Origin: Lachnospiraceae bacterium AD3010
GTDB lineage: Bacteria; Bacillota; Clostridia; Lachnospirales; Lachnospiraceae
Direction: 5' to 3'
Length of the DNA: 64,000 nt
Assembly: GCA_000622025.1 (NCBI GenBank)
Contig: JHWU01000007.1
Coordinates: 81,049 to 145,048, forward strand
Made by a program: the position numbers and the translations under genes. Shown one piece after another: positions 21,900 through 59,555 of this stretch (its first letter is position 1; each line of letters opens with the position of its first letter). The notes under the pieces are model-generated. The model did no database searches. It worked only from the letters and a program-made list of their open reading frames with translations, and was not told the DNA's origin.

Positions 21900-23909
21900 C
21901 TACTCCTCACGCTCTTTAATGAAATCCATATTATCTCTTTCAATATCGCTGAGCATTGTCTGTATATTAAAATCATCCGGATCAATTGTTCCGCTATACC
22001 AAGGCTTTGAATCAAAGTAAGCCTGTAACTCAGCATCCTGGAAACGACGTCCATGGCGGGCTACAATTTCATTTCTAGCTTTTCTTAGTTCATCATTTGA
22101 TAATCCTTCCAAGTCAGACTCGGTAAGATTCCTGCTTGAACTATATGGAAGAATATAATCATCATTATCATTAGTTATCGAAATTTCGTTCCCCTCATAT
22201 CCACTATATATTCCCCAATCCTCCAATTTCTGCTTAAACTCATTGTTGCCGACAGAAGTTCTAGAACACATGCTAACAGGTGTATCCTCTTTTATTTCTT
22301 CTCTTTCATCAAGCGATTTTCCAGTATACATGAAGTCTACTATAAAACCTGAGCTCCAAATTTCACAGTTTGGACAATATATTAAATTGTCATTTATTAT
22401 CGGGATATCAGTTTCGCCTATTTTGTCAGGAATTATTATACTCGCAGGCCCTTGGATAGCCACAACAATGTAATCCTTTTCATCAGAGAAATCTGGTTCC
22501 TCATGTTCTGGAGGTATCACTATTCCATATGCATAATCATATAATTTATCCTGTTCAAATCCAGATACTGCCACTAAAATTTCTGTATTATCAATTTTAT
22601 ACAATTGTTGATAACCATTATTATCTAAAGTAGTCTCATATGAAAGATCATATCCTAGTCGATTCAGATCTCCTATAGTTGTTCTATTAATTAAAATATC
22701 TCTATAAAAATCGGACGATACATCCTCGGAAATTGGCTGATCCGCTTTTTCTTTCAGTGAAAAACTAATCGTAATATCCGGCAAATATACTTCACTTTTT
22801 ACATCGCTTGTTTTCACTGACACATCTACGCCGGTATTATTCAAAACTATTTTACCTGATCCATGGTTATTCTCACTGTCATTAAAAGTAAAATCACTTC
22901 TACATCCATCAAATTTAATTGTTTCGCTGATGGTGCATTTTTTCCCTTCTTCATTCATAGCATATATTTCAATACTGCCATTGTCCTCATAGTGTTGTAG
23001 TTGAAAATATACACCATTTTCCTCATCATAATAATATCCTGAGTATTTTGCATAACATGTCTTAAGCAAAGCGGAACTATCTTTATAATCCCCCAATTCA
23101 GATAATTTTATAATTGCATCTGCATATTCACTGTTATCAATGTGTTTCAATGATTCAGAATAAAGCGCTTCTTTATCTTTCTGATCTGTCTCAGCTGCAT
23201 CCTCTTCACTTTTGTTAGTGGCTGCTATACCATCAGATAATTCATCTGTACTATTCCTCGGTTTTGCAACAAGATTCCATACTACAAGAGTTCCAACAAC
23301 AAGAATAATCAGCATAATGATCGAAATGACAATCACCAACACTCTCGTTTTGTTCTGCTGTTTATTCGATAGGATTTTGTAGTTCTGCTCTGTCTCTATT
23401 TTTCTTCCCAAAAATCTGGAAACAACTGAGATGAGATCCGATGAAGCACCTACCTGATCATATTTCAACGCTTGTATTGAATTAATTGCGGTCGGAATAT
23501 ATTTGGCATCCATTCCCAGATAAACAGGAATTATTTTTTTTGAACTTATATTTTTTTCATATCTTTCCCAAAGCTTTTCAAATGAATCTTTTGAGGTTCC
23601 AATAACCAATACAATTTTAGACACATTTAAGGCAGCCTCTTCAGTTACCTCTGCATCTCTTCCAGTAACATTTTCCAAAGATACTCTTTTATAAAACGCT
23701 TTGATTTTGTACTGCTCCAAAAGATTATATATTTCCTGGGCAATAACAGAATCCTTTGTTCTCCGTCCATTTTCATCACTTTCAGAATAGCAAATAAAAA
23801 CATCTACTTCTCCACAGAATTCCATCATGGAAAACTGACTTCCGCAGCTAGTACACGTCCATATTGAATTTTCAAATATTAGATCACCGCCACAGTTTTT
23901 ACACTTCAT
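21900..23909 (-). CDS. TIR-domain membrane protein: N-terminal zinc ribbon, TIR domain, single TM helix, extracellular region ending in a YARHG domain (paralog 3)
   Basis: Zinc ribbon CKNCGG...CTSCGS. TIR_2-like block VDVFICYSESDENGRRTKDSVIAQEIYNLLEQYKIKAFY...KIVLVIG. TM helix VLVIVISIIMLIILVVGTLVVW. Ectodomain carries a GDYKDS-type repeat and a C-terminal LSNDELRKARNEIVARHGRRFQDAELQAYFDSKPWY (YARHG motif). ATG at 23909 has GGAGG 7 nt upstream; the ORF-track start at 23927 lacks an RBS. Confidence 0.7.
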   Translation of the reverse strand: MKCKNCGGDLIFENSIWTCTSCGSQFSMMEFCGEVDVFICYSESDENGRRTKDSVIAQEIYNLLEQYKIKAFYKRVSLENVTGRDAEVTEEAALNVSKIVLVIGTSKDSFEKLWERYEKNISSKKIIPVYLGMDAKYIPTAINSIQALKYDQVGASSDLISVVSRFLGRKIETEQNYKILSNKQQNKTRVLVIVISIIMLIILVVGTLVVWNLVAKPRNSTDELSDGIAATNKSEEDAAETDQKDKEALYSESLKHIDNSEYADAIIKLSELGDYKDSSALLKTCYAKYSGYYYDEENGVYFQLQHYEDNGSIEIYAMNEEGKKCTISETIKFDGCRSDFTFNDSENNHGSGKIVLNNTGVDVSVKTSDVKSEVYLPDITISFSLKEKADQPISEDVSSDFYRDILINRTTIGDLNRLGYDLSYETTLDNNGYQQLYKIDNTEILVAVSGFEQDKLYDYAYGIVIPPEHEEPDFSDEKDYIVVAIQGPASIIIPDKIGETDIPIINDNLIYCPNCEIWSSGFIVDFMYTGKSLDEREEIKEDTPVSMCSRTSVGNNEFKQKLEDWGIYSGYEGNEISITNDNDDYILPYSSSRNLTESDLEGLSNDELRKARNEIVARHGRRFQDAELQAYFDSKPWYSGTIDPDDFNIQTMLSDIERDNMDFIKEREE

Positions 23910-23911
23910 GA

Positions 23912-26263
23912 TTAATCCTCCAGCCATACGTCTTTTACAGCTGTTTTCCCATCTGTTTCCGTGCCATCGCTTTTATAAATTGATCCGCTTTGTGAAATAC
24001 AGAATCCATCCTTTAGGTATATAGCACCTTCTAAGATCTTTATGTCACTTCCAAGTTTAGATAAGTTGTTTCTTGAATCTATGACATAAGCTGTATGATT
24101 CTCTGACCATAGGTCTTTAATGTTTTCCTTCTCAGAAATACTTCCATCATCAAAATTAAAAATATGCATTATGTCATTACTATCCAGTGCAGCAATATAA
24201 TATCTTGATATCTGAATATCTTTGATCTCAGATAATCCATCCAAAAAGGCTTCCATTTCTAAGCGATGATAGAATTCTTCTTCCGGATCTCCACTTGTAA
24301 AACCATTTATCTCATAATCAACATAATGAACTTTTCCAAAATTATCTAGACCTACTAAAACAGCTTTCGCAAGCGTCCCCGAACTATAAACACCTTTTTC
24401 ATCCCAGTCAATTTTTATTATGTTGCGCCAATTCTTGACAGGATTTAACCATTCATCGCTTGCAACGTTATCTTTTACTATTTCCCCAACAATAACTGAT
24501 CCATCATTTTTTAAGGCTACATTCGTAAAATTAAAACGGTCTGATATTTGGATTATATTCTCCCAGTCTTTATCTAATCCGTTAAGAACGGCCGAATTAC
24601 AAACAAATCCATCCTCATACAAAGCGTATAATCCAGGATAATTTGCTCCAATAGAAATAACCTTTCCATGACTATTAACATCAAGATCACCCTTTTTCGG
24701 ATATTCAACAAAGTCCCCGGAATCATCATAACCCAACTCAACATTGTTATTTCCTTTATCAAAGCCGAATGAATCGACTGAACCATTCCCATTTATATAA
24801 TATGACCCCGAAGGAGATCTTCCACCGTCAAAATCCGTAGTCAACGCAACTGTAGAAACACTTTCTCTCCACTTCTTTTCGCATTTTTCCAGCATTTCCT
24901 GAACTTCGGGATAGTCCCCGATCTTCTGTAATGCCCATGTCGCCTCTGCATATTTCCGATCATAATACAACTGCATGGCTGCATCATAATCAGCCTGATA
25001 GGTACATTTTACTGCCAGCTCCGCAGCGTCCTCATAACCCCCGATTCTGCCAAATATGGCCTTGGCCTCATCATATCGCCCGGAAGCAAACAGTTCCTGT
25101 GCCTCTTCATATCCTGCCTGATTGGATGTTTTTACAGACAACTCCGCCGCATCTTCATAATCTCCAAGTTCGTCATAAATAGCCTGTGCTTCTTCATATT
25201 TCCCGGCTGTATAAAGCTCCTGCGCCTTGGTATACTTCTTTTCATTTTCAGCCTGCTTCCGTGCCGGTATGGTTATCAGCAGAACAAGCGGAATTCCAAC
25301 CACTATCGCAACCAGCCCTGCGATCATAAGAGTCTTTCTGGTCTTTTTTCTCCGCTCTTTCAGGATTATCGGTGTGGGAATCAGTTTCTTTATGCCGCGG
25401 ATCAGCTCCTGTTCAAAATCCTCCGCCCCCATGTTCTGGGCAGAAAGAAGAGCGAACTCCTCCGGGAGCCCGCTTTCATCCATATCAAAATATACCGGGA
25501 TAAGTGTTTTTGACGTATCTTTCCTGCGGAGCGTCAGATATCTGCTCCATTCGTTCTTTACCCACGCAGATTGTATGTTCTCAGATGAAGAACATACTGT
25601 AATCATTACTTTGCTGGAAGAAAGAGCCGCATAGATATAAGGCTCGTACTCTTCGCCTATCTTGGACTCCAGAGTTATTCTGGAGAAGAATACCTTATAT
25701 CCAAGTTCTGTCAGTTTCTCGTATAATTTCTGGGCTTCTATACTATCCTTGGTACGGTTCCCGTTGGCATCAGTTTCCTTGTAAGATATGAAAACATCAA
25801 AGGGTTTCTCTCTCTTTGACACTTCAAGAATCCCTTTCTGAATATTTTCAATGATCCCGGCATCCCGCTTATATAATTCTGCCTTATCTCCCACAGATAG
25901 TTCCAGCGCCCGAAGATAATTCTCATCCTTCAGCACGGAATCCGTGTGTGTCCTGTTACAGGTCGGGATGTACCGACCAGTCTGGGGATCCTTTGCATAT
26001 GTCACGCCATACTTACAAAGCACAAGATCCCAGTATATCTCTGCATCATTAGGATTAACAGAAAGCAACTGGCTGAAAATACCTTCTGCCTTGTCATATT
26101 CATTATGAAGAAGATACTGATTTCCACGTTCATACAGCGCTTTTGAGCTATCATCCCCGAAGAGTGGAAGCGTCTGCTTTGTTCCGCAGTAGTCGCAGAC
26201 TGCGATGCGAGTCTTCTGATCAATAGTTAAACTACCGGCACAGATCTTGCATTTATACTCCAT
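23912..26263 (-). CDS. TIR-domain membrane protein: zinc ribbon, TPR-like region, TIR domain, TM helix, extracellular helical repeats plus beta-rich domain (paralog 2)
   Basis: 783 aa. Zinc ribbon CKICAGS...CDYCGT. TIR block PFDVFISYKETDANGNRTKDSIEAQKLYEKLTELGYKVFFSRITLES...VMITVCSSSENIQSAWVKNEWSRY. TM helix TLMIAGLVAIVVGIPLVLLITI. Three ~35-aa repeats (GKYEEAQAIYDELGDYEDAAEL). C-terminal beta-rich region. Confidence 0.7.
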   Translation of the reverse strand: MEYKCKICAGSLTIDQKTRIAVCDYCGTKQTLPLFGDDSSKALYERGNQYLLHNEYDKAEGIFSQLLSVNPNDAEIYWDLVLCKYGVTYAKDPQTGRYIPTCNRTHTDSVLKDENYLRALELSVGDKAELYKRDAGIIENIQKGILEVSKREKPFDVFISYKETDANGNRTKDSIEAQKLYEKLTELGYKVFFSRITLESKIGEEYEPYIYAALSSSKVMITVCSSSENIQSAWVKNEWSRYLTLRRKDTSKTLIPVYFDMDESGLPEEFALLSAQNMGAEDFEQELIRGIKKLIPTPIILKERRKKTRKTLMIAGLVAIVVGIPLVLLITIPARKQAENEKKYTKAQELYTAGKYEEAQAIYDELGDYEDAAELSVKTSNQAGYEEAQELFASGRYDEAKAIFGRIGGYEDAAELAVKCTYQADYDAAMQLYYDRKYAEATWALQKIGDYPEVQEMLEKCEKKWRESVSTVALTTDFDGGRSPSGSYYINGNGSVDSFGFDKGNNNVELGYDDSGDFVEYPKKGDLDVNSHGKVISIGANYPGLYALYEDGFVCNSAVLNGLDKDWENIIQISDRFNFTNVALKNDGSVIVGEIVKDNVASDEWLNPVKNWRNIIKIDWDEKGVYSSGTLAKAVLVGLDNFGKVHYVDYEINGFTSGDPEEEFYHRLEMEAFLDGLSEIKDIQISRYYIAALDSNDIMHIFNFDDGSISEKENIKDLWSENHTAYVIDSRNNLSKLGSDIKILEGAIYLKDGFCISQSGSIYKSDGTETDGKTAVKDVWLED

Positions 26264-26588
26264 AATTCCCCCATAAATTCAGTTTAATGATATTAATTAT
26301 TACTTCCAATCAAAGGTTTTTGTATCAACCAATTGTCCATCTGGATCATATAACCTAGCAGCGACTGTTAGACTTGGTGCTTTACTAGGCGTATCCCAAC
26401 TCCTGTTATACCACCAATAACTATAACCATCCGTTGACCTACTAACTACAACTTCCATTCTTTTGTTTGGTTCTCCTTTTCAAGTATAGCTTTCTCTCTA
26501 CTATTCCTCTCCAATATCCACCACAAAGGCTTATTGGCAAAATGACGCATTTTCTCAAACAAACAGTTTCAATTCAACAGATACCGCA

Positions 26589-28619
26589 TCAATGGAAGAA
26601 TTCACCTCCCCAATTTAGCATTCGTACATTATTCACCGTAACATAATACTCTTGCTTCGGTTCTTTTAAGCTGAGAATAGTCTTCGCTGCCTCATTATTT
26701 ACAGCATAATAAGAGTACTTATTATTTCCGCTAAATGCGTATCCATTTCGTGTATATATTATTTTATTATTATCTGAATAACTGATCCATTTCTCTCCCA
26801 GACTTTCTATCCTGTTTATTATTTTAAGGTATTGGTTGTTTGATAAATAGTAATCAATGTGATTAAAATCACCCATTTCCAATACTCTATCGTATAAATT
26901 GCTTAAATTATCACCTTCCTGAACATTCTCAAGTTGATACATAATATCGCAAAATTCCTGATATTTTTCATCTCCAGGTATTTCTTTGTAATAGGAATAT
27001 GCAACGTCATATTTTCGTGCATCCATAAGCTCTTTGGCATATGGCTCAATATATTGCGGATCCTTTTCCAGCAGTCCAATATCCTTAAATAAATCCAGTG
27101 CTTCAGTATATTCTTCTTTCTTAAACAGATTATCAGCTCGTTCGATACTATCCTCATTAATTTTTTCCTTACTGTTTTCAATAAGATCATTTATGTTTTT
27201 ATATCCTTCTATTTCTTCGGCAGCAGTCAAAAACGATTCATAATCACCTTTTTCATATAACTCTAGAGCACTTTTGTATTTTGAATTTAAAGATATTTCC
27301 TTTGCAACAAGAGAAGCTCCGTATCCCAGCATAATCAATACGAAAATTAGAATCACACAAACCAAAAAAAGCCTAGTCCTTTTTACTGCTATTTTCCTGC
27401 TTTCATCCTTTTTTTTTCGATAAATACTAACCTGTTTCTTGAGCAACTCTATATCTTCATTGCTGCCAAATCTGATAGCATTAATATACGAACTATTCTT
27501 ATCGAACGGTGTATTCTACTTTCCCAGTTCATCGATACTTTTCACATTAAGCTCGGCACATAGCTTCATAATGTATGTATTTGAATCTTCCGGAATTAAA
27601 TCTAATACTTTGTCACAATAAGATTTTGCATTTGCAAAATCACCATTATCTATAAAAACTTCAATTCTTTTCTTTAATGCTGCAACATCTATGTTACTCC
27701 GTAAATATTGGGAGGATTGTATTACCGGGTTAATAATCTTATATATTCCTCTAATCAAGTCCTGCATGCTCCCGAGTTTTCCCATATCTAAAGCCTGCAT
27801 ATATGAGAACTCATCCGGTAAATCATAAGGATCCATATCTTTGTATGCAGGAATAAGTGTTTTATTTTCACCGGAATTAATGAGTCCGATATATCTTGAC
27901 CATTCATTTTTTACCCAAGCGGCATTAAAATATTCTACCTTGGTCCCAACGACTATCATAATTTTTGCGGAATTAAGTGCAGCAAAGATATATGGCTCAT
28001 ATTCACTTCCCAGTTTGTCCTCCAATGATATTCGGGAAAAGAAAACTTTATATCCCTCACGTGTAAGCTCATTATAAATTTCCTGGGCTATTACACTGTC
28101 TACTGTTCTCTTTCCGTAATCATCTGTTTCCTTATAACAGATGAAGATGTCATAAGGCTCCTCTTTATTTGATATATCAAGTATATTTTTTTGGATATTA
28201 TCAATGATTCTTGCTTCTGACTCTATGACATCACATTGTTCAGGTGACGTGTATTTAATGGCTAATTTATAATTATGATCATCAAAAACAGATTGGAGTT
28301 GTGTCCTGTTTACTGTAGGAATTCTTTTTTTTGTTCTAGGATCTTCAACATACTCTATTCCATACCGGCATAACACCAGATCCCAATACACTTCTGCATC
28401 AGTATCATCTTCTAGCAACACCTGTTCATATAACGCGGCTGCCTTGTCGAAATCACTTATTCTACGGTAATGATCTGCCCTGTCATAGAGACTCGCTTTA
28501 CGCTCACTTGTCATTCTAGGAAGAATCTGCTTTGTACCGCAATATAAGCAGGTTGCAGTACCTTCACCATTAGGTTCCAAATCCCCACCACAGATTTTAC
28601 ATTTTAAAATTCCTTCCAT
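26589..28619 (-). pseudogene. Third ZnR-TPR-TIR-TM-ectodomain paralog interrupted by one in-frame amber codon (TAG at 27516-27518); possibly expressed as a soluble ZnR-TPR-TIR fragment of 367 aa
   Basis: ORFs 27516..28619 and 26589..27446 are in the same frame (72 nt apart). The 24 intervening codons read without another stop (NTPFDKNSSYINAIRFGSNEDIE). The upstream part contains zinc ribbon CKICGG...CLYCGT and TIR block PYDIFICYKETDDYGKRTVDSVIAQEIYNELTREGYKVFFSRISLED...AAWVKNEWSRY. The downstream part begins with TM helix LFLVCVILIFVLIMLGYGASLVA followed by ectodomain repeats. The fused architecture matches the two intact neighbours. Confidence 0.6.
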
Positions 28620-28648
28620 AGCAACCTCTAAAAGATGTCTTCCAGTGA

Positions 28649-29590
28649 TTATTGATCAGTTATTGATCTTTCTATGCTTTTTTGAATATCGTCCACAGCA
28701 TCATAATAGAACTTTTCATATAATTGGCTCTTTTCGGAATCATTACTATCAATTCTATATCCCAGAGTTCTTACTTCAGCGCCATAACATCTTAAAAGAT
28801 CGTGCTTTCTATCCGCATTATCTGTCTGCGGTTCATAGAAGAACAGCTTTCCATGGGAAGCTTTCTCTCTATTTTTCCTCTCCAAAAGCCACCACAGATC
28901 CATTTCTGCAAAATCGTATCCAAATCCCAGAACATAAATATCGTTCATAATAAAAGCATCTACCCAGGATCTGATGGATGCCTCTTTATTGTTTACTTCA
29001 CTCCACTTATACCGGGCACCTGATTTTTGCAGATATGATTTAATCTTAAATAACAGGTTGCCGTAATAATAATGCCCTATAACCATACTACTGGAATTTT
29101 TGCAATGACCATGTATGTGCCAGATTCTTTTATCCATGCCATCATTGGAAATCTTTTGAAATGTGTGCAAGAAAATATTAGCTTCTTTTCTGGTAATACC
29201 AATCCCTCGGATATAATCAGAAATAGAATTCACCCTTGAAGAAGATATTCTTTCTCCAATGATATGATTGGCTGCCTCTTCAAGTTCAAATCCATAGTTT
29301 ACTGTCAATATATCCTCCACAGGCAAGGATATTAGCTTCCCATAGTACTCCGCCTGCTTTTTTTGTGTTAGGCATCCCCATATCTCAGTGGCAGATTTCT
29401 TCATGGCATTATGAACATCATTATTAGTACCCAGAACTATTTTCAACGTAAATGGGATATCATCTGATTCTGATATCATCTGATTTCCCTTTGATGACTG
29501 CTTAAGTAAATTATCGAGTGAAATAGATCCTTTATCAAAAGACCGATTGATTCCATTCCCTATCAGTATTGATGATTTATACATACCCAT
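28649..29590 (-). CDS. Standalone SIR2-like (SIR2_2 family) putative NAD+-consuming enzyme, no SLOG or other sensor domain
   Basis: 313 aa. The motif order matches the ThsA-type SIR2 domain. ILIGNGINRSF aligns with the GAG motif. TVNYGFE aligns with TTNYD. IWHIHGH aligns with KMHGD. VLGFGYDFAEMDLWWLL aligns with FVGFSFTDPNLDYIL. The gene lies 29 nt upstream of the TIR paralog array. One base appears to be missing from the printed line at 29581, so coordinates follow the ORF track. Confidence 0.6.
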   Translation of the reverse strand: MGMYKSSILIGNGINRSFDKGSISLDNLLKQSSKGNQMISESDDIPFTLKIVLGTNNDVHNAMKKSATEIWGCLTQKKQAEYYGKLISLPVEDILTVNYGFELEEAANHIIGERISSSRVNSISDYIRGIGITRKEANIFLHTFQKISNDGMDKRIWHIHGHCKNSSSMVIGHYYYGNLLFKIKSYLQKSGARYKWSEVNNKEASIRSWVDAFIMNDIYVLGFGYDFAEMDLWWLLERKNREKASHGKLFFYEPQTDNADRKHDLLRCYGAEVRTLGYRIDSNDSEKSQLYEKFYYDAVDDIQKSIERSITDQ

Positions 29591-29616
29591 TCCTCATACT
29601 GCCAAAGATTCTGTTT

Positions 29617-31389
29617 TTATTCGAGGTTTATCCATATAGCAGGTCTTACTCCTTTATCCCTTACATGGATATCCCCGGTGCTTTCGACATTTGCGTCAGG
29701 CGTTGCGTACTTAAAGCCCTTTCTTGCTTCATCCCGGAGCCACCAGTCAGAATCACAGGACAAATCTGTTCCTTTTGACTTCAGCGCTTTTACTTCACCA
29801 TCTGATAACAGGGAAATCTTCAGTCCATCAGTATCTATGATCTGATTCAGATCCTTTTCTGTGAATTCATTCAGGAAGTCACCGTTGAGCCACTTGCATA
29901 TATCTGAATCCTCAAATGAAGTGTCAGTTATATCATCGCTTACCGGCAGATCCCTCATAGGCTTGTCGGCCAGAAGATGCATCTTCTCATATCCGACCAT
30001 TTCAATTATCCGCCAAGCAATGGGCTCCCCGTTATATGTTCCAAGATACAGTATCTTATCCGAGGACTGTCTGTTGAATATTTCCACAAGTCTTTCCCGG
30101 GAATCTTTATATGGGGTTACCTCAAAATACAATCCTGTTGCAGTTTCATAGTCACCCTTCGCATAAGCTTCCTCTGCAGCAGTATACTTCTGTTCGCAGA
30201 TAATAGCCCGAATCTCCTCGATCTTGTCATTACTATCTTTATATCCGTCAAGAGCTTCAAACGCTGAGATAGCCTCATCATATTTCTCTTCATTCATAAG
30301 CTGCATTGCGGCATCATATGCCTTTTCCTTAATAAGCATCTTTATTTCTTCTATCTTCTGGGGACTGTCAGAAAAATCTCCCAGTTCTTCAAAAGCTGCT
30401 ATCGCCGCATCATACTCGCCGGCTTCCATAAGCTTCATGGCTTCATCATATGCAGCCTGCTTTATTATGGTATGGATTTCCTCTATCTTATCTTCACTAT
30501 CCTTATATCCACCCAATTCTTCGAACTTTTCTATGGCAGAGTCATAATCCTCATTCTTCATGAATTCACAGGCTTTCTTGTATTCCATTTCTGGAGCCAC
30601 AAAAAATACAATGGCCAGGACTGCAATAATAAGCCCAAGGGAAATAAGAATCCCTGCAACAGCAAATTTATTTCCGGCACCGGGCTTCGCATCAACAGCA
30701 GGATCCTTAACCCTTTTAAGTGTCTTGCACTGATTATTCCTGTTTTTCATGAGATCCGATATTTCATCACAAAGTGTGACAGCGTTCTGCGGATCCCCGG
30801 CACTGTCCTTCAGGGCCATGGTTTTATTCAGAATCTCTTTTTCAATACCTTCTAGCTGGGAATGGCTCATGGGATCGCTGTATGTTATGTCCTCAATAAG
30901 CCTCTGAATCTTTTTCTTAAGCTCAGCGTCTTCTGTTTTGATCGTCTGCAGTTCGTTCTTTAGCGTATCCTTAAACAGGACTTTTTTAACGACCTGCTCA
31001 TCGTTTTCACCGATCTTTGATGTGAATGCTGATATAATCAATACAAGGAACGTATATGCTATAGCAATCCCAAGATTTACTACGAGAGCGGTTTCATAGG
31101 GAAGGAACCCGGATGTAATCTCCTTATATGAGTATGCAAGCTGCGCAACAAAGAACAGCCAGGATAGCACAACCACCGGAATATTCAGGAACTGTTCTTC
31201 TTTTGTCCTTTTGCTGAAAAATTTGAAGATGGATACGAACATAACGATCAGGGCGTACCCCCCGAACAGATATGCCATCCAGAACACCAGCGTCTTCTCC
31301 TGTGGAAGTAAGAATGATGCTATGGAAAACGCTGTAAAAGAAATAATGGCGATCAGCAGACTGATCCCCTGCCCTTTGTTAAGCTTCAT
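29617..31389 (-). CDS. Multi-pass membrane protein with cytoplasmic coiled-coil and extracellular GDYKDS-type helical repeats plus a C-terminal beta domain
   Basis: 590 aa. Four N-terminal TM helices, a fifth TM (FAVAGILISLGLIIAVLAIVFFV) and three ectodomain repeats (EDYDSAIEKFEELGGYKDSEDKIEEI; GEYDAAIAAFEELGDFSDSPQKIEEI; EKYDEAISAFEALDGYKDSNDKIEEI). These are the same repeat type as in the TIR paralog ectodomains. It sits 26 nt upstream of the SIR2 gene. Confidence 0.55.
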   Translation of the reverse strand: MKLNKGQGISLLIAIISFTAFSIASFLLPQEKTLVFWMAYLFGGYALIVMFVSIFKFFSKRTKEEQFLNIPVVVLSWLFFVAQLAYSYKEITSGFLPYETALVVNLGIAIAYTFLVLIISAFTSKIGENDEQVVKKVLFKDTLKNELQTIKTEDAELKKKIQRLIEDITYSDPMSHSQLEGIEKEILNKTMALKDSAGDPQNAVTLCDEISDLMKNRNNQCKTLKRVKDPAVDAKPGAGNKFAVAGILISLGLIIAVLAIVFFVAPEMEYKKACEFMKNEDYDSAIEKFEELGGYKDSEDKIEEIHTIIKQAAYDEAMKLMEAGEYDAAIAAFEELGDFSDSPQKIEEIKMLIKEKAYDAAMQLMNEEKYDEAISAFEALDGYKDSNDKIEEIRAIICEQKYTAAEEAYAKGDYETATGLYFEVTPYKDSRERLVEIFNRQSSDKILYLGTYNGEPIAWRIIEMVGYEKMHLLADKPMRDLPVSDDITDTSFEDSDICKWLNGDFLNEFTEKDLNQIIDTDGLKISLLSDGEVKALKSKGTDLSCDSDWWLRDEARKGFKYATPDANVESTGDIHVRDKGVRPAIWINLE

Positions 31390-31414
31390 ACCTCGACCCC
31401 TCCTGTTTCAAATA

Positions 31415-32587
31415 TTATTTCAACATATCCTTCATAAGTTCTGCTTTTGCTGCCGCGAACTCTTCATCTGATAACATGTTCATTTCCTGCATCATTTTCA
31501 GTTTTTCCAGTTTTTTCTTAAAATCATCAACCGACTGATCCGCAGGCTGTGCCCCGTCTGATGAATTAATGCTGTCTATGGTCTCATTCATCATTCCCCC
31601 GACCATGCCGCCAACAGTTCCTCCGACTCCGGCCATCATGCCCAGACCTATTCCCATGTTGGTAAACTCTCCGGAAGCCTCATTTTCGGCAATCTTTTCA
31701 GCCACATCGAAGCCTCTTTCCTGTTGATAGGTATATCCTTCCTGCTGCCGTTTCGTAGCCAGTGCCTGTGATTCTATCACGGTCTTCTTTGCTTCAGTCT
31801 CAGCATCAATAACCTCTGTCTTCTGACGTAGCTGCGCCTCCGCAATATCAGAGTACTGTCTAACATGGATTTCCTTATACTTCTCATATGCTGTGTCCCC
31901 AACAGGCTTGGCGATATTCGTAACCATGAATTTCTGCAGGGTTATACCATAATCGTCAAAGTCCGGGGTGAGCTTATTGAACAGGTTATCTGAGAACTCA
32001 TCCATATGGGAGTCCACTTCAAATATGGAATAATCCGCAGACTGCATGGAATTTGCAATATAGGGCTTTATCTTTGAATTAAGGATAGAACGGAATTTCT
32101 GAACCAGCGCATCCTGTGTCAGATTCTTTTCCGTTCCCACAACTTTAACGACCAGCCTTCTGGAATCGTTAACCGAGAGGATCATTTCTCCGGATAACCC
32201 TATCTGCAGAGGGAAATTATACTTCGGATCCATGTACTGAACCTGCGAGTCAGTTCCCCAGCGGATAGCCATGTGGCTGGTCATACTTATGAAATATACC
32301 TCACAATGGAAAGGACTCTTTCCGCCGGTAGGTATGTTTATCAGTTCTTTTAATATCGGGATATTGTTGGTGCTCAGGGTATACCGCCCTGCCGGGAAGA
32401 GATCGAGCGCCTGCCCGTCCTTAAAGAACAGAGCCTCCTGATTCTCGTGAACTATCAGCTGACTCAGTGTGTTAAAGTCTTCCTTGGGATGTTTCCAAAC
32501 AAAGTTGTTGTTATTCCCCTCATATTTGATTACAGATGTGATACCATCTATATTCAGCACATTCGGAATTATACTTGATAATGCCAT
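31415..32587 (-). CDS. SPFH (band-7)-domain protein with C-terminal SHOCT domain, B. subtilis YdjI-like
   Basis: 390 aa. N-terminal block FVWKHPKEDF...ALFFKDGQALDLFPAGRYTLSTNNIPILKEL...FHCEVYFISMTSHMAIRWGT matches the YdjI-type SPFH pattern. Gly/Met-rich linker GIGLGMMAGVGGTVGGMVGGMM. C-terminal SHOCT-like LEKLKMMQEMNMLSDEEFAAAKAELM. GGGGG RBS 8 nt before the ATG. Confidence 0.65.
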   Translation of the reverse strand: MALSSIIPNVLNIDGITSVIKYEGNNNNFVWKHPKEDFNTLSQLIVHENQEALFFKDGQALDLFPAGRYTLSTNNIPILKELINIPTGGKSPFHCEVYFISMTSHMAIRWGTDSQVQYMDPKYNFPLQIGLSGEMILSVNDSRRLVVKVVGTEKNLTQDALVQKFRSILNSKIKPYIANSMQSADYSIFEVDSHMDEFSDNLFNKLTPDFDDYGITLQKFMVTNIAKPVGDTAYEKYKEIHVRQYSDIAEAQLRQKTEVIDAETEAKKTVIESQALATKRQQEGYTYQQERGFDVAEKIAENEASGEFTNMGIGLGMMAGVGGTVGGMVGGMMNETIDSINSSDGAQPADQSVDDFKKKLEKLKMMQEMNMLSDEEFAAAKAELMKDMLK

Positions 32588-32730
32588 TGATCAACCCCCG
32601 TATAATTACTGTTGTTTCAAAAAGCAGACTTTCTGAAACAGGAGATTTATAATAAAAAGGCCGTAAATCATTGACATTCTTTTAGATTTTTTAGTGTTTC
32701 TTATTGTCTACATTCCAAAACAGGATGATC

Positions 32731-33345
32731 TTACTGTCGTATTTTCTGATGTAATATTAGTTCTTTACATCTTCGATAAAAGGTGGTGTGTGACATTTCA
32801 GCGAAATCAGCAGCTTCTCTTGATGAAAGTTCCCCTGAGACCCACCTGTTGTACGCGTCCATAAACTGATCTGTCTCATTAGTCCTTGGTCTTCCAAACC
32901 GTATACCGCGAATCTTTGCTGCGGTAATCCCCTCTTTTTGACGCTGTTTGATCATCACACGCTCTGTCTCAGCAACATATGCCAATATCTGCAATACTAG
33001 ATCTGAAATAAATCTGCCAGTCAGTCCTTCCTTACCGGTATTGGTATTCAAGAGCGGCATATCCAGTACTTCAATATCTGCGCCCTTTTCTTTTGTAATA
33101 ATTTCCCATTGTTTCAGTATCTCTCCATAGTTTCTTCCAAGCCGATCAATACTTTTTATCACAATACAGTCCTTATTTTTAATTCTTTTTAGCAACTGCT
33201 TGTATTGTGGGCGGTTAAAATCTTTTCCGGATTCAAAATCTATGAAAATTGATGACCTGTTTATTCCCCTTTCTACCAATGCATCTAACTGCCTGTCCGG
33301 CTTCTGATCTTTTGAAGAGATTCTCACATACCCATAAATACTCAT
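32731..33345 (-). CDS. Small serine recombinase (resolvase/invertase family)
   Basis: 204 aa. MSIYGYVRISSKDQ carries the catalytic Ser motif GYxRVSxxxQ, followed by IVIKSIDRLGRN and a C-terminal HTH (MSHTTFYRRCKEL). Confidence 0.85.
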   Translation of the reverse strand: MSIYGYVRISSKDQKPDRQLDALVERGINRSSIFIDFESGKDFNRPQYKQLLKRIKNKDCIVIKSIDRLGRNYGEILKQWEIITKEKGADIEVLDMPLLNTNTGKEGLTGRFISDLVLQILAYVAETERVMIKQRQKEGITAAKIRGIRFGRPRTNETDQFMDAYNRWVSGELSSREAADFAEMSHTTFYRRCKELILHQKIRQ

Positions 33346-33405
33346 CTTTCCCTGCCTCCTTTATGTTTTTAAAAACAATAAATCGGGCAATAAGAAACAC
33401 AATTT

Positions 33406-33428
33406 AATGTACTTAATTTAAGTACATT
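33406..33428. promoter_or_regulatory. Perfect 23-bp palindrome AATGTACTTAAtTTAAGTACATT plus a third half-site (33458-33468); candidate recombinase res/crossover site or RHH operator
   Basis: Read directly from the sequence between the recombinase start (33345) and the RHH ORF start (33491). The half-site AATGTACTTAA is repeated 30 nt downstream. Confidence 0.45.
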
Positions 33429-33490
33429 TTAAACATAATATCACATTCGGAACTTAGAATGTACTTAAATTGAACTTTTGAGATTATTAT

Positions 33491-33652
33491 ATGAATAAAC
33501 GGGAAAAAGATAAGCATTTGGGATTACGTATTGATTCGGAAATGCACAAAAAATTAAAAGAAATGGCTGAATATGAAGGTCGCTCCATTAATGGTGAAGT
33601 TCTTTATCTGATACGTCAGGCTATCAAGGAATTTGAAAAAACAGTAGAATGA
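33491..33652 (+). CDS. Arc/MetJ-type ribbon-helix-helix (RHH) DNA-binding protein, 53 aa, below the ORF-track length cutoff
   Basis: The ATG..TGA frame encodes MNKREKDKHLGLRIDSEMHKKLKEMAEYEGRSINGEVLYLIRQAIKEFEKTVE. The beta-strand LGLRID followed by two helices, and the RSINGEVLY motif, are typical of Arc/CopG RHH proteins. It is divergent from the recombinase and flanks the palindrome. The RBS is weak. Confidence 0.5.
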   Translation: MNKREKDKHLGLRIDSEMHKKLKEMAEYEGRSINGEVLYLIRQAIKEFEKTVE

Positions 33653-33744
33653 ATGTCTGTGATCGTAGGCTAGAGCGCAATCGATGGTTTTGTGCACGTA
33701 AATTCACAGCTTAGGTCTACACAGGCGTTAAAAAATGTAACAAG

Positions 33745-33790
33745 AAAACAGCTGCCATCATATGATGGTCATATGGAGATTGCCGCAGCT
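33745..33790 (-). terminator. Rho-independent terminator of the PD-(D/E)xK gene
   Basis: Immediately after the TAA stop (33791-33793), the minus strand has stem AGCTGC...GCAGCT enclosing palindrome CCATCATATGATGG, followed by TGTTTTCTTGTT. Confidence 0.45.
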
Positions 33791-34714
33791 TTATTTCTTT
33801 ATCAGCCCTTCATATAAAGAACGCTGAGACTGTGGGATTTTTAGAGAATCCATTGCTTTCTCAACATTAACCCCAAAGGAATCCATAACATTTCTTATTG
33901 CCCTAATTAGCGTTTCCTGTTCCTTTTCATTTACCTTTTCATTTACCTTTTCATCTACCCGGTCCTTCATGATTTCCATCAATATATCACCAGCCATATC
34001 ATTTCTCCTTATCTCCTCAAAGATCTGAGGGTTCTTCACTGCCAATAGTTCTATCAGAACTCTGTAATGATCCCTTAAACTGTCTGTCCTTTCTTTATCT
34101 GCGAATACTATTACCCGTTCCACATCTTCTTCAGCAGCTTTATCCGTTAAGGCCCTGTATGCTGCGTATTCCTCGCCCTGAAGCTCCCCCGTGATAATGA
34201 TCTGAAAAGGGATGTCCGTTATTCCTTTTACAAGATAGATTCCCGGTGCATCCCCTTTGATGAGATTCCCGGATCTCTCCATTGTCTTAAAGAGCTTCGG
34301 ATTCTTCACCGCGCGGAAGATGGATATCGTTACATCGTCTGCCTTAATATCTCCCTCATGTTCTGCGATTCCGATATATAGATACGCATAAGCAGCTATC
34401 TTTCGGATTACCCGTTCATTCAAAGAATCATGGGGATTCTTATATTCAAGAATGTTATGCTTATGGAAGATCTTGAAAATGTCCTTATCAAATTCAACCT
34501 TTTCATCTTCGATAAGCACCACGTAGTCCGCCCTTGGCGGTTCTTCTCCCAGAACTTCTTCTGTCAGCAAACGGATACTGTTTCCGTATTTATAGGTCTC
34601 TATCCTTAGAAGGGCTTCAAACCCTGTATGCCAGTCACTGCGGGGTGTAGCCAGAAGTTCCTTTAAGGCCGCCCGGTGAAAGGCTATTTTCTCTTTTCGT
34701 TCCTTATCTGTCAT
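33791..34714 (-). CDS. Putative PD-(D/E)xK nuclease of the Rpn/YhgA-like (transposase_31) recombination-promoting family
   Basis: 307 aa. PD-(D/E)xK-like motifs ADYVVLIEDE and ILEYKNP sit in the N-terminal half, with a helical C-terminal region. Assignment is by motif only. Confidence 0.4.
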   Translation of the reverse strand: MTDKERKEKIAFHRAALKELLATPRSDWHTGFEALLRIETYKYGNSIRLLTEEVLGEEPPRADYVVLIEDEKVEFDKDIFKIFHKHNILEYKNPHDSLNERVIRKIAAYAYLYIGIAEHEGDIKADDVTISIFRAVKNPKLFKTMERSGNLIKGDAPGIYLVKGITDIPFQIIITGELQGEEYAAYRALTDKAAEEDVERVIVFADKERTDSLRDHYRVLIELLAVKNPQIFEEIRRNDMAGDILMEIMKDRVDEKVNEKVNEKEQETLIRAIRNVMDSFGVNVEKAMDSLKIPQSQRSLYEGLIKK

Positions 34715-34942
34715 GATAATATTTTACTATTATTCTGTTCAAATCTCAATAATGCGCAAAAACCCTGTTTGTGCCATCATTTTTATTAAAGAAGCCCAAA
34801 AAAGCAACATATAATTTGTAGAAAAATATATCTTACATTTTTGATTTTGAAGTGTTAAAATCGACTTTGCACGGTTTGTTTTTGGTTTTGCAACAAGGGC
34901 ACAGGGACGATCCCGCCGCCCTATCTTAGGAAAGGAGCTATA

Positions 34943-58244: not shown

Positions 58245-59555
58245 CTATTTAAGGAGCAGATCCATATCCCTGTAAAATTCCGGAAATGAGATACCAACAC
58301 AGGAAGGATCCAGTATCTCCACCGGACGGACGTCCGAATTGATAAGCGCCGCAACGGAAAAACTCATAGCGATCCTGTGATCCTTTGCGGTTTCTATTGA
58401 GGCCCTGTGGAGAGCCTTTCCTCCGCATATCAAAAGGCCATCCTCCCTTTCCTCAGCATCGGCTCCCATAGCCTTAAGATTATTAACGGTAAGGCTTATC
58501 CTGTTTGACTCCTTTACCTTAAGCTCCGAAGCATCCCTTATCACGGTCTCTCCGTCAGCAGTGGCAGCCACCACCGAAATAAGCGGCAGCTCATCTATAA
58601 GAGTCGGGATGATATCTCCTCCGATCTCCACTCCTTTAAGGGATGACGAGTACCTTACAATGAGATCCGCTGACTTCTCTCCAGATTCATAACGCTCGTT
58701 TTCAATCTTGATATCCGCTCCCATATCCTTAAAAACACGAAGTATCCCGTCTCTTGTGGGATTGATACCCACATTTTTCAGTACGATCTCCGAGCCCGGA
58801 ACTATGAGAGCAGCTCCTATAAAATATGCCGCGCTGGAAATATCCCCGGGGACATTTACCTCTAAGCCCCTAAGCTCCCTGCAGGGTCTGACCGAGGCTT
58901 TCGGCTCATCAGTGCTTCCCCCGGTAATGTCCGCTCCGAAGGCTGAAAGCATAAGCTCCGTATGGTTTCTGGAAAGAGCGGGTTCGATAACAACTGTCTC
59001 TTTCTCAGCATATAAGCCGGATAAAAGAATGGCCGACTTTACCTGGGCAGACGCCACCCTGGTCCTTATCTCTCCGCCGGACAGCTTTCCCTTTTCAATG
59101 ATAAGCGGGAGAAGTCCGTTTCCTTTTTCCGATCTGATGGAAGCACCAAGGTTCTTTAAGGGGTCGATTATCCTTTTCATAGGCCTTCTTGAAAGAGAAG
59201 GATCTCCTGTAAGTACGGTCTTAAAATCCTGTCCTGCGAGGATCCCTGAGATAAGCCTTGCCGTAGTCCCGGAATTTCCGCAGTCAAGAGGCGTATCAGG
59301 CTTACTTAAGCCACGGATACCCTTCCCGGAAACCCGGATAAAATCACCTTTTTCATCCCTTTCTTCTTCGATCTCTATCCCCATAGTCCGGAAACAGTTC
59401 ATTGTGGATATGCAGTCCGCACTCTTTAAGAAGCCCCTTATGACAGTGTCTCCCGAGGCTATAGAGCCGAACATCACGGCTCTGTGTGAAATTGATTTGT
59501 CTCCCGGAACGCTAAGCTCACCGTGAAGACCGTTTGAAGCATGGTTTATTTTCAT
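58245..59555 (-). CDS. aroA: 3-phosphoshikimate 1-carboxyvinyltransferase (EPSP synthase)
   Basis: 436 aa. LSVPGDKSISHRAVMFGSIASGDTVIRGFL matches the EPSPS N-terminal block. GNSGTTARL phosphate-binding motif present. Confidence 0.9.
   Translation of the reverse strand: MKINHASNGLHGELSVPGDKSISHRAVMFGSIASGDTVIRGFLKSADCISTMNCFRTMGIEIEEERDEKGDFIRVSGKGIRGLSKPDTPLDCGNSGTTARLISGILAGQDFKTVLTGDPSLSRRPMKRIIDPLKNLGASIRSEKGNGLLPLIIEKGKLSGGEIRTRVASAQVKSAILLSGLYAEKETVVIEPALSRNHTELMLSAFGADITGGSTDEPKASVRPCRELRGLEVNVPGDISSAAYFIGAALIVPGSEIVLKNVGINPTRDGILRVFKDMGADIKIENERYESGEKSADLIVRYSSSLKGVEIGGDIIPTLIDELPLISVVAATADGETVIRDASELKVKESNRISLTVNNLKAMGADAEEREDGLLICGGKALHRASIETAKDHRIAMSFSVAALINSDVRPVEILDPSCVGISFPEFYRDMDLLLK

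Follow-up and report, generated by a model that had tools for sequence, protein, structure and literature searches.

Gene organization of the locus

Three tandem paralogs coding for TIR-domain proteins are located on the minus strand of the window, which is the whole 64-kb stretch of DNA that was analysed, and the reading frame of the third paralog is interrupted by an amber codon. Reading directly from the sequence, the minus-strand frame opens with ATG at 28619 and runs for 367 codons to TAG at 27518-27516. The same frame continues after the TAG for 308 codons without a stop and ends with TGA at 26591-26589. Apart from the TAG the 676-codon frame is intact; it is divided into an N-terminal ORF of 367 aa and a tail of 308 codons that has no stop. 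The genes and the elements of the interrupted frame are as follows.

28649..29590, minus strand: SIR2_2/AbiH-like gene (Pfam SIR2_2), 313 aa, 29 bp ahead of the TIR gene
27519..28619, minus strand: upstream ORF of paralog 3, 367 aa, covering the zinc ribbon, TPR and TIR_2 and the greater part of the second TPR-like module; AGAGG Shine-Dalgarno sequence before the ATG
27516..27518, minus strand: in-frame amber TAG at codon 368; with its flanking codons, AAG TAG AAT
27447..27515, minus strand: 23 stop-free codons that follow the TAG and precede the earliest possible restart codon, encoding a conserved F-D-x4-Y-x-N-A-x-R-F motif
26589..27446, minus strand: annotated downstream ORF with a TTG start, 285 aa, with a K/R-rich segment, a transmembrane (TM) helix, TPR-like repeats and a unique C-terminal region
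26476..26543, minus strand: remains of a second SIR2_2-like gene, in the intergenic spacer of paralogs 3 and 2, with 76% DNA identity to 28847-28914
23912..26263, minus strand: paralog 2, intact, 783 aa, zinc ribbon-TPR-TIR-TM-ectodomain
21900..23927, minus strand: paralog 1, intact, zinc ribbon-TIR-TM-YARHG, with a likely start at 23909 and a TAG stop
32731..33345: serine recombinase gene

The first-pass annotation had stated that the two ORFs share a frame that is interrupted by a single TAG, and this is confirmed by the tail, which is open as far as the terminal TGA. The same annotation placed 24 stop-free codons between the two ORFs; these codons are indeed free of stops, but they number 23, with TTG 27446 being the 24th. 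The DNA of the tail has no stop in the frame of the gene, compared with 13-43 stops in the five other frames. Shuffled versions of the tail contain a mean of ~27.8 in-frame stops and none of 20000 shuffles was stop-free; the open 308-codon tail is far from chance. Additionally, the GC content by codon position in the tail follows the same pattern as in the upstream part. Among ORFs of 100 codons or more, the 64-kb window has no other pair that a single TAG separates, and the TAG site lies outside homopolymers and repeats.

The signals for a second translation start were inspected within the tail. No Shine-Dalgarno sequence precedes the first in-frame restart codon, TTG 27446. The following TTG (27365) is located inside the TM helix with a weak AGGA 11 nt upstream, and is the start that gene calling on the Logan contig picked. 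Most other genes of the island feature G-rich Shine-Dalgarno sequences. A promoter and terminator scan gave promoter-like matches at the background rate, and the sole nearby hairpin (27641-27622) is weak and lies ~100 nt upstream of the TAG, inside the coding sequence.

The island is low in GC, with ~35% at 21.9-34.8 kb and 45-48% in the flanks. The 313-aa protein encoded ahead of paralog 3 matches Pfam SIR2_2 with 23 bits, which is just below the cut-off of 24.5, and its homologues carry PF13289 and PF14253. The 68-nt relic of a second such gene translates to FANKPLWWILERNSREKA, which corresponds to FAEMDLWWLLERKNREKA in the intact SIR2_2-like gene, and the two share a FAxxxLWWxLERxxREKA segment. 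The array has already been losing genes, since the second SIR2_2-like copy survives only as this relic.

Domain architecture and the position of the stop

The domains of the protein encoded by the full 676-codon frame were located by profile searches, structure comparison and an AlphaFold model.

28539..28601, minus strand: N-terminal 4-cysteine zinc ribbon, residues 7-27; C7, C10, C24 and C27 are invariant in an 18-sequence family alignment
27780..28148, minus strand: TIR domain, residues 158-280, with a WxxxE motif (W235, E239), from Pfam TIR_2 and Foldseek
27420..27692, minus strand: juxtamembrane helical TPR-like module, residues ~310-400, interrupted by the TAG (AF2 pLDDT ~89-95)
27306..27371, minus strand: single TM helix, residues 417-438, LFLVCVILIFVLIMLGYGASLV, from reading of the sequence and alignment with the TM helices of homologues; helical in the model

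The upstream product had been described in the first-pass annotation as a 367-aa ZnR-TPR-TIR protein, and this description holds, with the 4-Cys zinc ribbon, TPR and TIR_2 all found in it. Residues 158-280 match Pfam TIR_2 (PF13676) with 46.2 bits, above the cut-off of 28. Foldseek matched the TIR folds of AbTir, SPARTA and MyD88 with a probability of 1.00, in addition to generic TPR proteins. W235 and E239 are invariant across the 18-sequence alignment, and the WxxxE glutamate, E239, would be the equivalent of the catalytic residue in TIR NADases. A sequence search of solved structures with the 367-aa and 313-aa proteins found no match, and a profile search returned only generic TPR proteins and a weak match to a TLR TIR domain.

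The TIR domain is followed by a flexible linker, residues 300-308 (AF2 pLDDT <50), and by the juxtamembrane module. A second TPR is found in the 367-aa product at residues 314-345, and the profile of the family alignment matches the SPAG1 TPR over profile positions 309-373. The helices of the module in the AlphaFold model span residues 312-324, 328-341, 346-356, 362-366 and 376-384, and a further helix, residues 387-456 (AF2), extends beyond residue 400 and runs into the membrane. The TAG falls between helices 362-366 and 376-384; the TIR domain ends ~85 residues before it and the TM helix begins 49 codons after it. The split had been placed exactly at the boundary of the TIR and TM segments, whereas it is in fact inside a confidently modelled helical module. 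Immediately after the TAG the frame encodes an intact F-D-x4-Y-Q-N-A-x-R-F motif (F372, D373, Y378, N380, A381, R383 and F384). In the form FDxxxxYxNAxRF this is the most conserved motif of the juxtamembrane module, and it is cut off by the TAG. The downstream part does not begin with the TM helix, as had been proposed; the annotated ORF starts 25 residues before it. The positively charged K/R-rich stretch that precedes the helix implies an N-in topology, as judged from its sequence. The last 113 residues of paralog 3 gave no match and have pLDDT values <50.

Homology across the stop

With the TAG read as a sense codon, the protein has >8000 homologues in a word-indexed database, the best 120 of which are 45-69% identical over 56-82% of the query. 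Among the best 120 matches at the level of 90% clusters, 119 are at least 623 aa long. With the 367-aa part as query, an exhaustive HMMER search retrieved 4014 clusters at 50% identity with E <= 1e-30, and the closest 150 representatives of these 50% clusters are all 509-3073 aa long, with none ending near residue 367. The named matches come from Lachnospiraceae, Oscillospiraceae, Clostridia or Eubacteriales MAGs. Family members are 50-69% identical to paralog 3 over at least 385 N-terminal residues and have the same module order. The family is a very large group of single-pass membrane proteins of Clostridia, with the zinc ribbon, TPR and TIR in the cytoplasm, then a second TPR-like module, a single TM helix and a variable extracellular part. 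In at least one member, P0075 (623 aa), no TM helix was seen when the sequence was inspected. A literature search found no description of this TIR family or of TIR-SPFH-SIR2 cassettes.

The alignments run through the interrupted codon. BLASTP against P0001 (763 aa) gives one continuous alignment of residues 1-551 with 53% identity, across the TAG, and the 18-sequence alignment likewise passes through it. Residues 369-400, which follow the TAG, have a similarity to homologues of 0.31, compared with 0.32 among the intact homologues, and for residues 1-300 the identity is 0.70 compared with 0.71. All 37 invariant columns of the 18-sequence alignment are kept in paralog 3, and the N-terminal zinc ribbon, TPR and TIR that mark the family are all present. 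The juxtamembrane motif, the TM helix and the TPR-like repeats, which in the family belong to the same polypeptide, are in frame but are positioned after the TAG. The column that holds the TAG is variable in the homologues, which have S, A, Q, L, Y, V or C at this position; all have sense codons, and no conserved in-frame stop was found there. Several of the residues found in this column have codons that are one base from TAG.

The tail also resembles parts of neighbouring genes, with matches to the TM helix and repeats of paralog 2 (E 2e-7) and to those of a 590-aa DUF6273 neighbour (E 9e-12). These matches dispose of the concern, raised in the first-pass annotation, that the downstream segment might be unlike the ectodomains of the paralogs. 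Comparison by hhalign of the last 122 residues with the common C-terminal domain of six homologues gave a probability of 0.2%, which speaks neither for nor against a deletion that would have left the SIR2-like relic and also shortened the C-terminus of paralog 3. No orthologue of the C-terminal 308 aa was found in a scan of GTDB with one genome per species or in JGI metagenomes. These scans returned only distant repeat matches with 28-47% identity over 50-100 residues. Paralog 3 is like the Clostridia zinc ribbon-TPR-TIR_2-TM family in its module order, tandem arrangement and neighbouring Band_7_1/SPFH gene, and differs by the interruption at codon 368 and the unmatched C-terminal 113 residues. 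A tail that is still translated would be expected to lack decay equally.

Related cassettes

The gene order around paralog 3 recurs on a 29-kb contig of GCA_016648615.1, which carries genes for Band_7_1 (390 aa), an unknown protein (443 aa), a SIR2_2/AbiH-like protein (288 aa) and a TIR protein in the same order. The TIR gene of this cassette (P0002, 61% identical) is an uninterrupted 771-aa ORF. On another contig of GCA_016648615.1, five full-length TIR paralogs stand in tandem behind a Band_7_1 gene. A cassette of TIR, SPFH/Band_7_1, membrane protein and SIR2_2/AbiH-like genes is found twice, in different genomes.

Origin of the amber codon

The first-pass annotation had left the choice between a sequencing error, amber read-through, the programmed production of a free TIR protein and a recent nonsense pseudogene. 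With an error of sequencing or assembly, the true codon would be a sense codon and the gene would be intact. A single base separates the allele from an intact gene, the downstream frame is undecayed and the allele is known from a single isolate, all of which would fit an error. Against this, an independent assembler (Logan) produced from run SRR3501123 a contig that matches 16,519 bp of the window with 100% identity, TAG included, and the same 367-aa gene is called in it. The site is in neither a homopolymer nor a repeat, and a short-read consensus very rarely contains substitution errors. An error at this codon is therefore a most improbable source of the TAG. Exact cluster look-up of the 367-aa, 258/285-aa, 783-aa and 311-aa proteins returned only one NCBI genome (307,770-bp contig) and its Logan re-assembly. 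Read-through or suppression of the amber codon, by a suppressor tRNA, pyrrolysine or a near-cognate tRNA, would produce both the 367-aa soluble form and the full-length receptor. The frame is fully kept after the TAG and TAG is the rarest stop among the real genes of the window, as read-through would have it; however, TAG works as a normal stop here, because aroA (58245..59555) and paralog 1 end on TAG at their expected C-termini. The aroA product is aligned by TIGR01356 to model position 412 of 415, and the C-terminus of paralog 1 is aligned by YARHG to model position 84 of 85. No tRNA gene was found in the 64-kb window and no Rfam element was matched in 21-35 kb, and the RNA structure of 131 nt around and after the TAG is no better than that of shuffles (z = -0.9). 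The window has no second long ORF pair split by a single TAG, and the homologues have no stop at the matching position. Programmed amber decoding, as with pyrrolysine, suppressor tRNAs or TAG-recoded phages, shares with this locus the in-frame TAG and the open frame beyond it, and differs in that TAG is a working stop here and that the window has no other in-frame TAGs, tRNA or structure. As far as the 64-kb window and the homologues go, the read-through option found no support and is very unlikely.

A third possibility is that the TAG was selected, freeing a cytoplasmic zinc ribbon-TPR-TIR protein that would act like ThsB of Thoeris, perhaps in partnership with the adjacent SIR2_2/AbiH-like protein and with the TM-ectodomain part made separately or discarded. 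Start signals and invariant residues, W235 and E239 included, are all preserved in the 367-aa ORF, it is 29 bp downstream of the SIR2_2/AbiH-like gene in an adjacency that recurs in another genome, and its downstream frame has not decayed; the family also contains P0075, in which no TM helix was seen. On the other hand, the TAG cuts the conserved folded helical module and not the disordered linker 300-308, the 150 closest cluster representatives all reach at least 509 aa, and the allele is known from a single isolate. The TIR gene adjacent to SIR2_2 in the other genome is full length, and a SIR2_2-TIR pairing needs no soluble TIR, because the TIR protein of that cassette is membrane-anchored. 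The downstream starts all lack a Shine-Dalgarno sequence. Thoeris itself is like paralog 3 in the TIR fold of ThsB, the conserved WxxxE glutamate and the adjoining SIR2-like gene, and the truncated product would be cytoplasmic as well. However, PADLOC matched neither ThsA nor ThsB, its only weak candidate being PDC-S66 (E 2.3e-5), and the NCBIfam Thoeris ThcB4 model scored 21.6 bits, below its cut-off of 220, which does not place the protein among ThsB or ThcB. Neither an SLOG nor a Macro domain was found in the 313-aa neighbour by Pfam, PADLOC or NCBIfam, which sets it apart from ThsA. Additionally, ThsB is a stand-alone TIR protein, whereas the ancestral or related forms of paralog 3 are membrane-anchored. 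With the stop inside a folded module, no relative that ends there and the Thoeris models unmatched, a programmed ThsB-like product is disfavoured and a selected split of this kind is unlikely. It is very unlikely that the amber is an adaptive switch by which a membrane TIR sensor became a zinc ribbon-TPR-TIR protein free in the cytoplasm, signalling to its SIR2_2/AbiH-like neighbour or under that neighbour's control, as a Thoeris-like pair derived from a receptor-type ancestor. With such a switch, some full-length or ectodomain product might still arise through reinitiation or read-through at a low level.

The TAG in paralog 3 is probably an ordinary nonsense mutation that inactivated one member of a redundant tandem array very recently. 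The option of a recent nonsense pseudogene is supported by the homology through the stop, the intact tail, the lack of restart signals and the uninterrupted relatives. The stop is premature and in frame, homology continues in frame beyond it, and independent start signals were not found downstream. The further decay that an older nonsense allele would show was not found, with no stops in 308 codons and residues 369-400 conserved; on this basis the mutation would be very recent in evolutionary terms. A nonsense mutation of this kind would require a single base change in one of the three tandem paralogs, turning codon 368 into TAG. Ribosomes that start at ATG 28619 would terminate at 27516 and release a soluble 367-aa protein that has neither the last juxtamembrane helix nor the anchor nor the ectodomain. 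Translation of the 308 codons beyond the TAG is most likely absent, or at a trace level only. The truncated product would have lost its receptor function, and this loss is probably tolerated through the two intact paralogs next door. A product retaining some activity is likely to be made from the 367-aa ORF, because it keeps every invariant residue and good start signals, and the label of pseudogene may overstate the loss.

Comparison with other systems

Young nonsense pseudogenes and truncated alleles in bacterial multigene families and variable islands are like paralog 3 in having a single premature stop, full-length homologues that align across it, adjacent redundant paralogs and a gene relic in the array. 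Paralog 3 differs from them in that it has no second lesion, so that its inactivation is undatable, and its N-terminal product probably still folds largely. Paralog 3 and the animal Toll-like receptors share an overall logic, in which a protein crosses the membrane once and has its variable part outside the cell and its TIR domain in the cytoplasm; this is an analogy only. The topology is the opposite one, with the TIR domain N-terminal in paralog 3, which has no LRRs and features added zinc-ribbon and TPR modules. Beyond the TIR fold, this analogy offers no evidence of common descent between paralog 3 and the Toll-like receptors.

Implications

The annotated 367-aa and 285-aa ORFs are best treated as two pieces of a single disrupted gene. 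The stop codon itself would be a routine gene loss in a redundant tandem array and matters little; the size of the TIR family and its conserved cassette are more noteworthy. If the cassette is a defence or surface-sensing system, the truncation would be a ready-made allele for testing the roles of the membrane anchor and the ectodomain.

Gene Order of the Cassette

The gene order of window positions 28649-32587 is conserved in a second genome, on contigs of GCA_016648615.1, which features a variant of the cassette with five tandem TIR paralogs. The order is as follows:

SPFH/Band_7_1 protein, 390 aa
membrane protein
SIR2_2/AbiH-like protein, ~300 aa
zinc ribbon-TPR-TIR-TM protein

A PADLOC search matched the cassette at 28649-32587 to no known defence system and returned only a weak PDC-S66 match. 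The 590-aa protein encoded at 29617-31389 has a TM helix and post-TM TPR-like repeats in common with the TIR proteins, and it is similar to the tail of paralog 3, the part downstream of the in-frame TAG (E 9e-12). It differs from the TIR proteins at the N-terminus, which is multi-TM instead of a TIR domain, and its C-terminus is a DUF6273 domain.

The TIR Paralogs and Their Spacer

The start listed for paralog 1, ATG 23927, falls within the end of paralog 2. ATG 23909 is preceded by a GGAGGA Shine-Dalgarno motif, gives a 669-aa product, and is also the start called on the Logan contig, an independent re-assembly of SRR3501123; it is the more likely start. In paralog 3, a nine-A run, CGAAAAAAAAAGG, at 27405-27413 is part of the coding sequence, in a lysine-rich stretch directly before the TM helix, and is a potential slippage site, though it is in frame here.

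The spacer between paralogs 3 and 2 features one further element:

26476-26543, 68 nt, relic of a second copy of the SIR2_2-like gene

The relic encodes FANKPLWWILERNSREKA and is 76% identical to 28847-28914, which points to a SIR2-like plus TIR unit that would once have been duplicated, with gene decay afterwards.

The Low-GC Island and the 10-Mer Repeats

Positions 21900-34800 form a low-GC island (~35% GC vs. 45-48% in the flanks) that contains the TIR array, a recombinase, and a small Arc/RHH-like ORF. Within this ~35% GC island, GC content reaches 46% in the stretch of paralog 2 that codes for the ectodomain (25000-25999), which suggests a mosaic origin of the ectodomain. The 10-mer TTTCTTATTG occurs three times in the window vs. 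0.35 expected, with all copies confined to 32697-33900:

32697-32706, copy of the 10-mer
33388-33397, copy of the 10-mer
33891-33900, copy of the 10-mer

Two inverted copies, with matches extended to 13 nt, bracket the serine recombinase gene (32731..33345), and the third is located ~500 bp beyond this pair. To its left, the middle site has the same flanking sequence as one copy; to its right, it matches the flank of the other. Upstream of the SPFH-TIR operon, the three copies may act as sites of recombination or inversion. The SPFH-SIR2-TIR cassette itself could represent a so far undescribed system for defence or envelope sensing.
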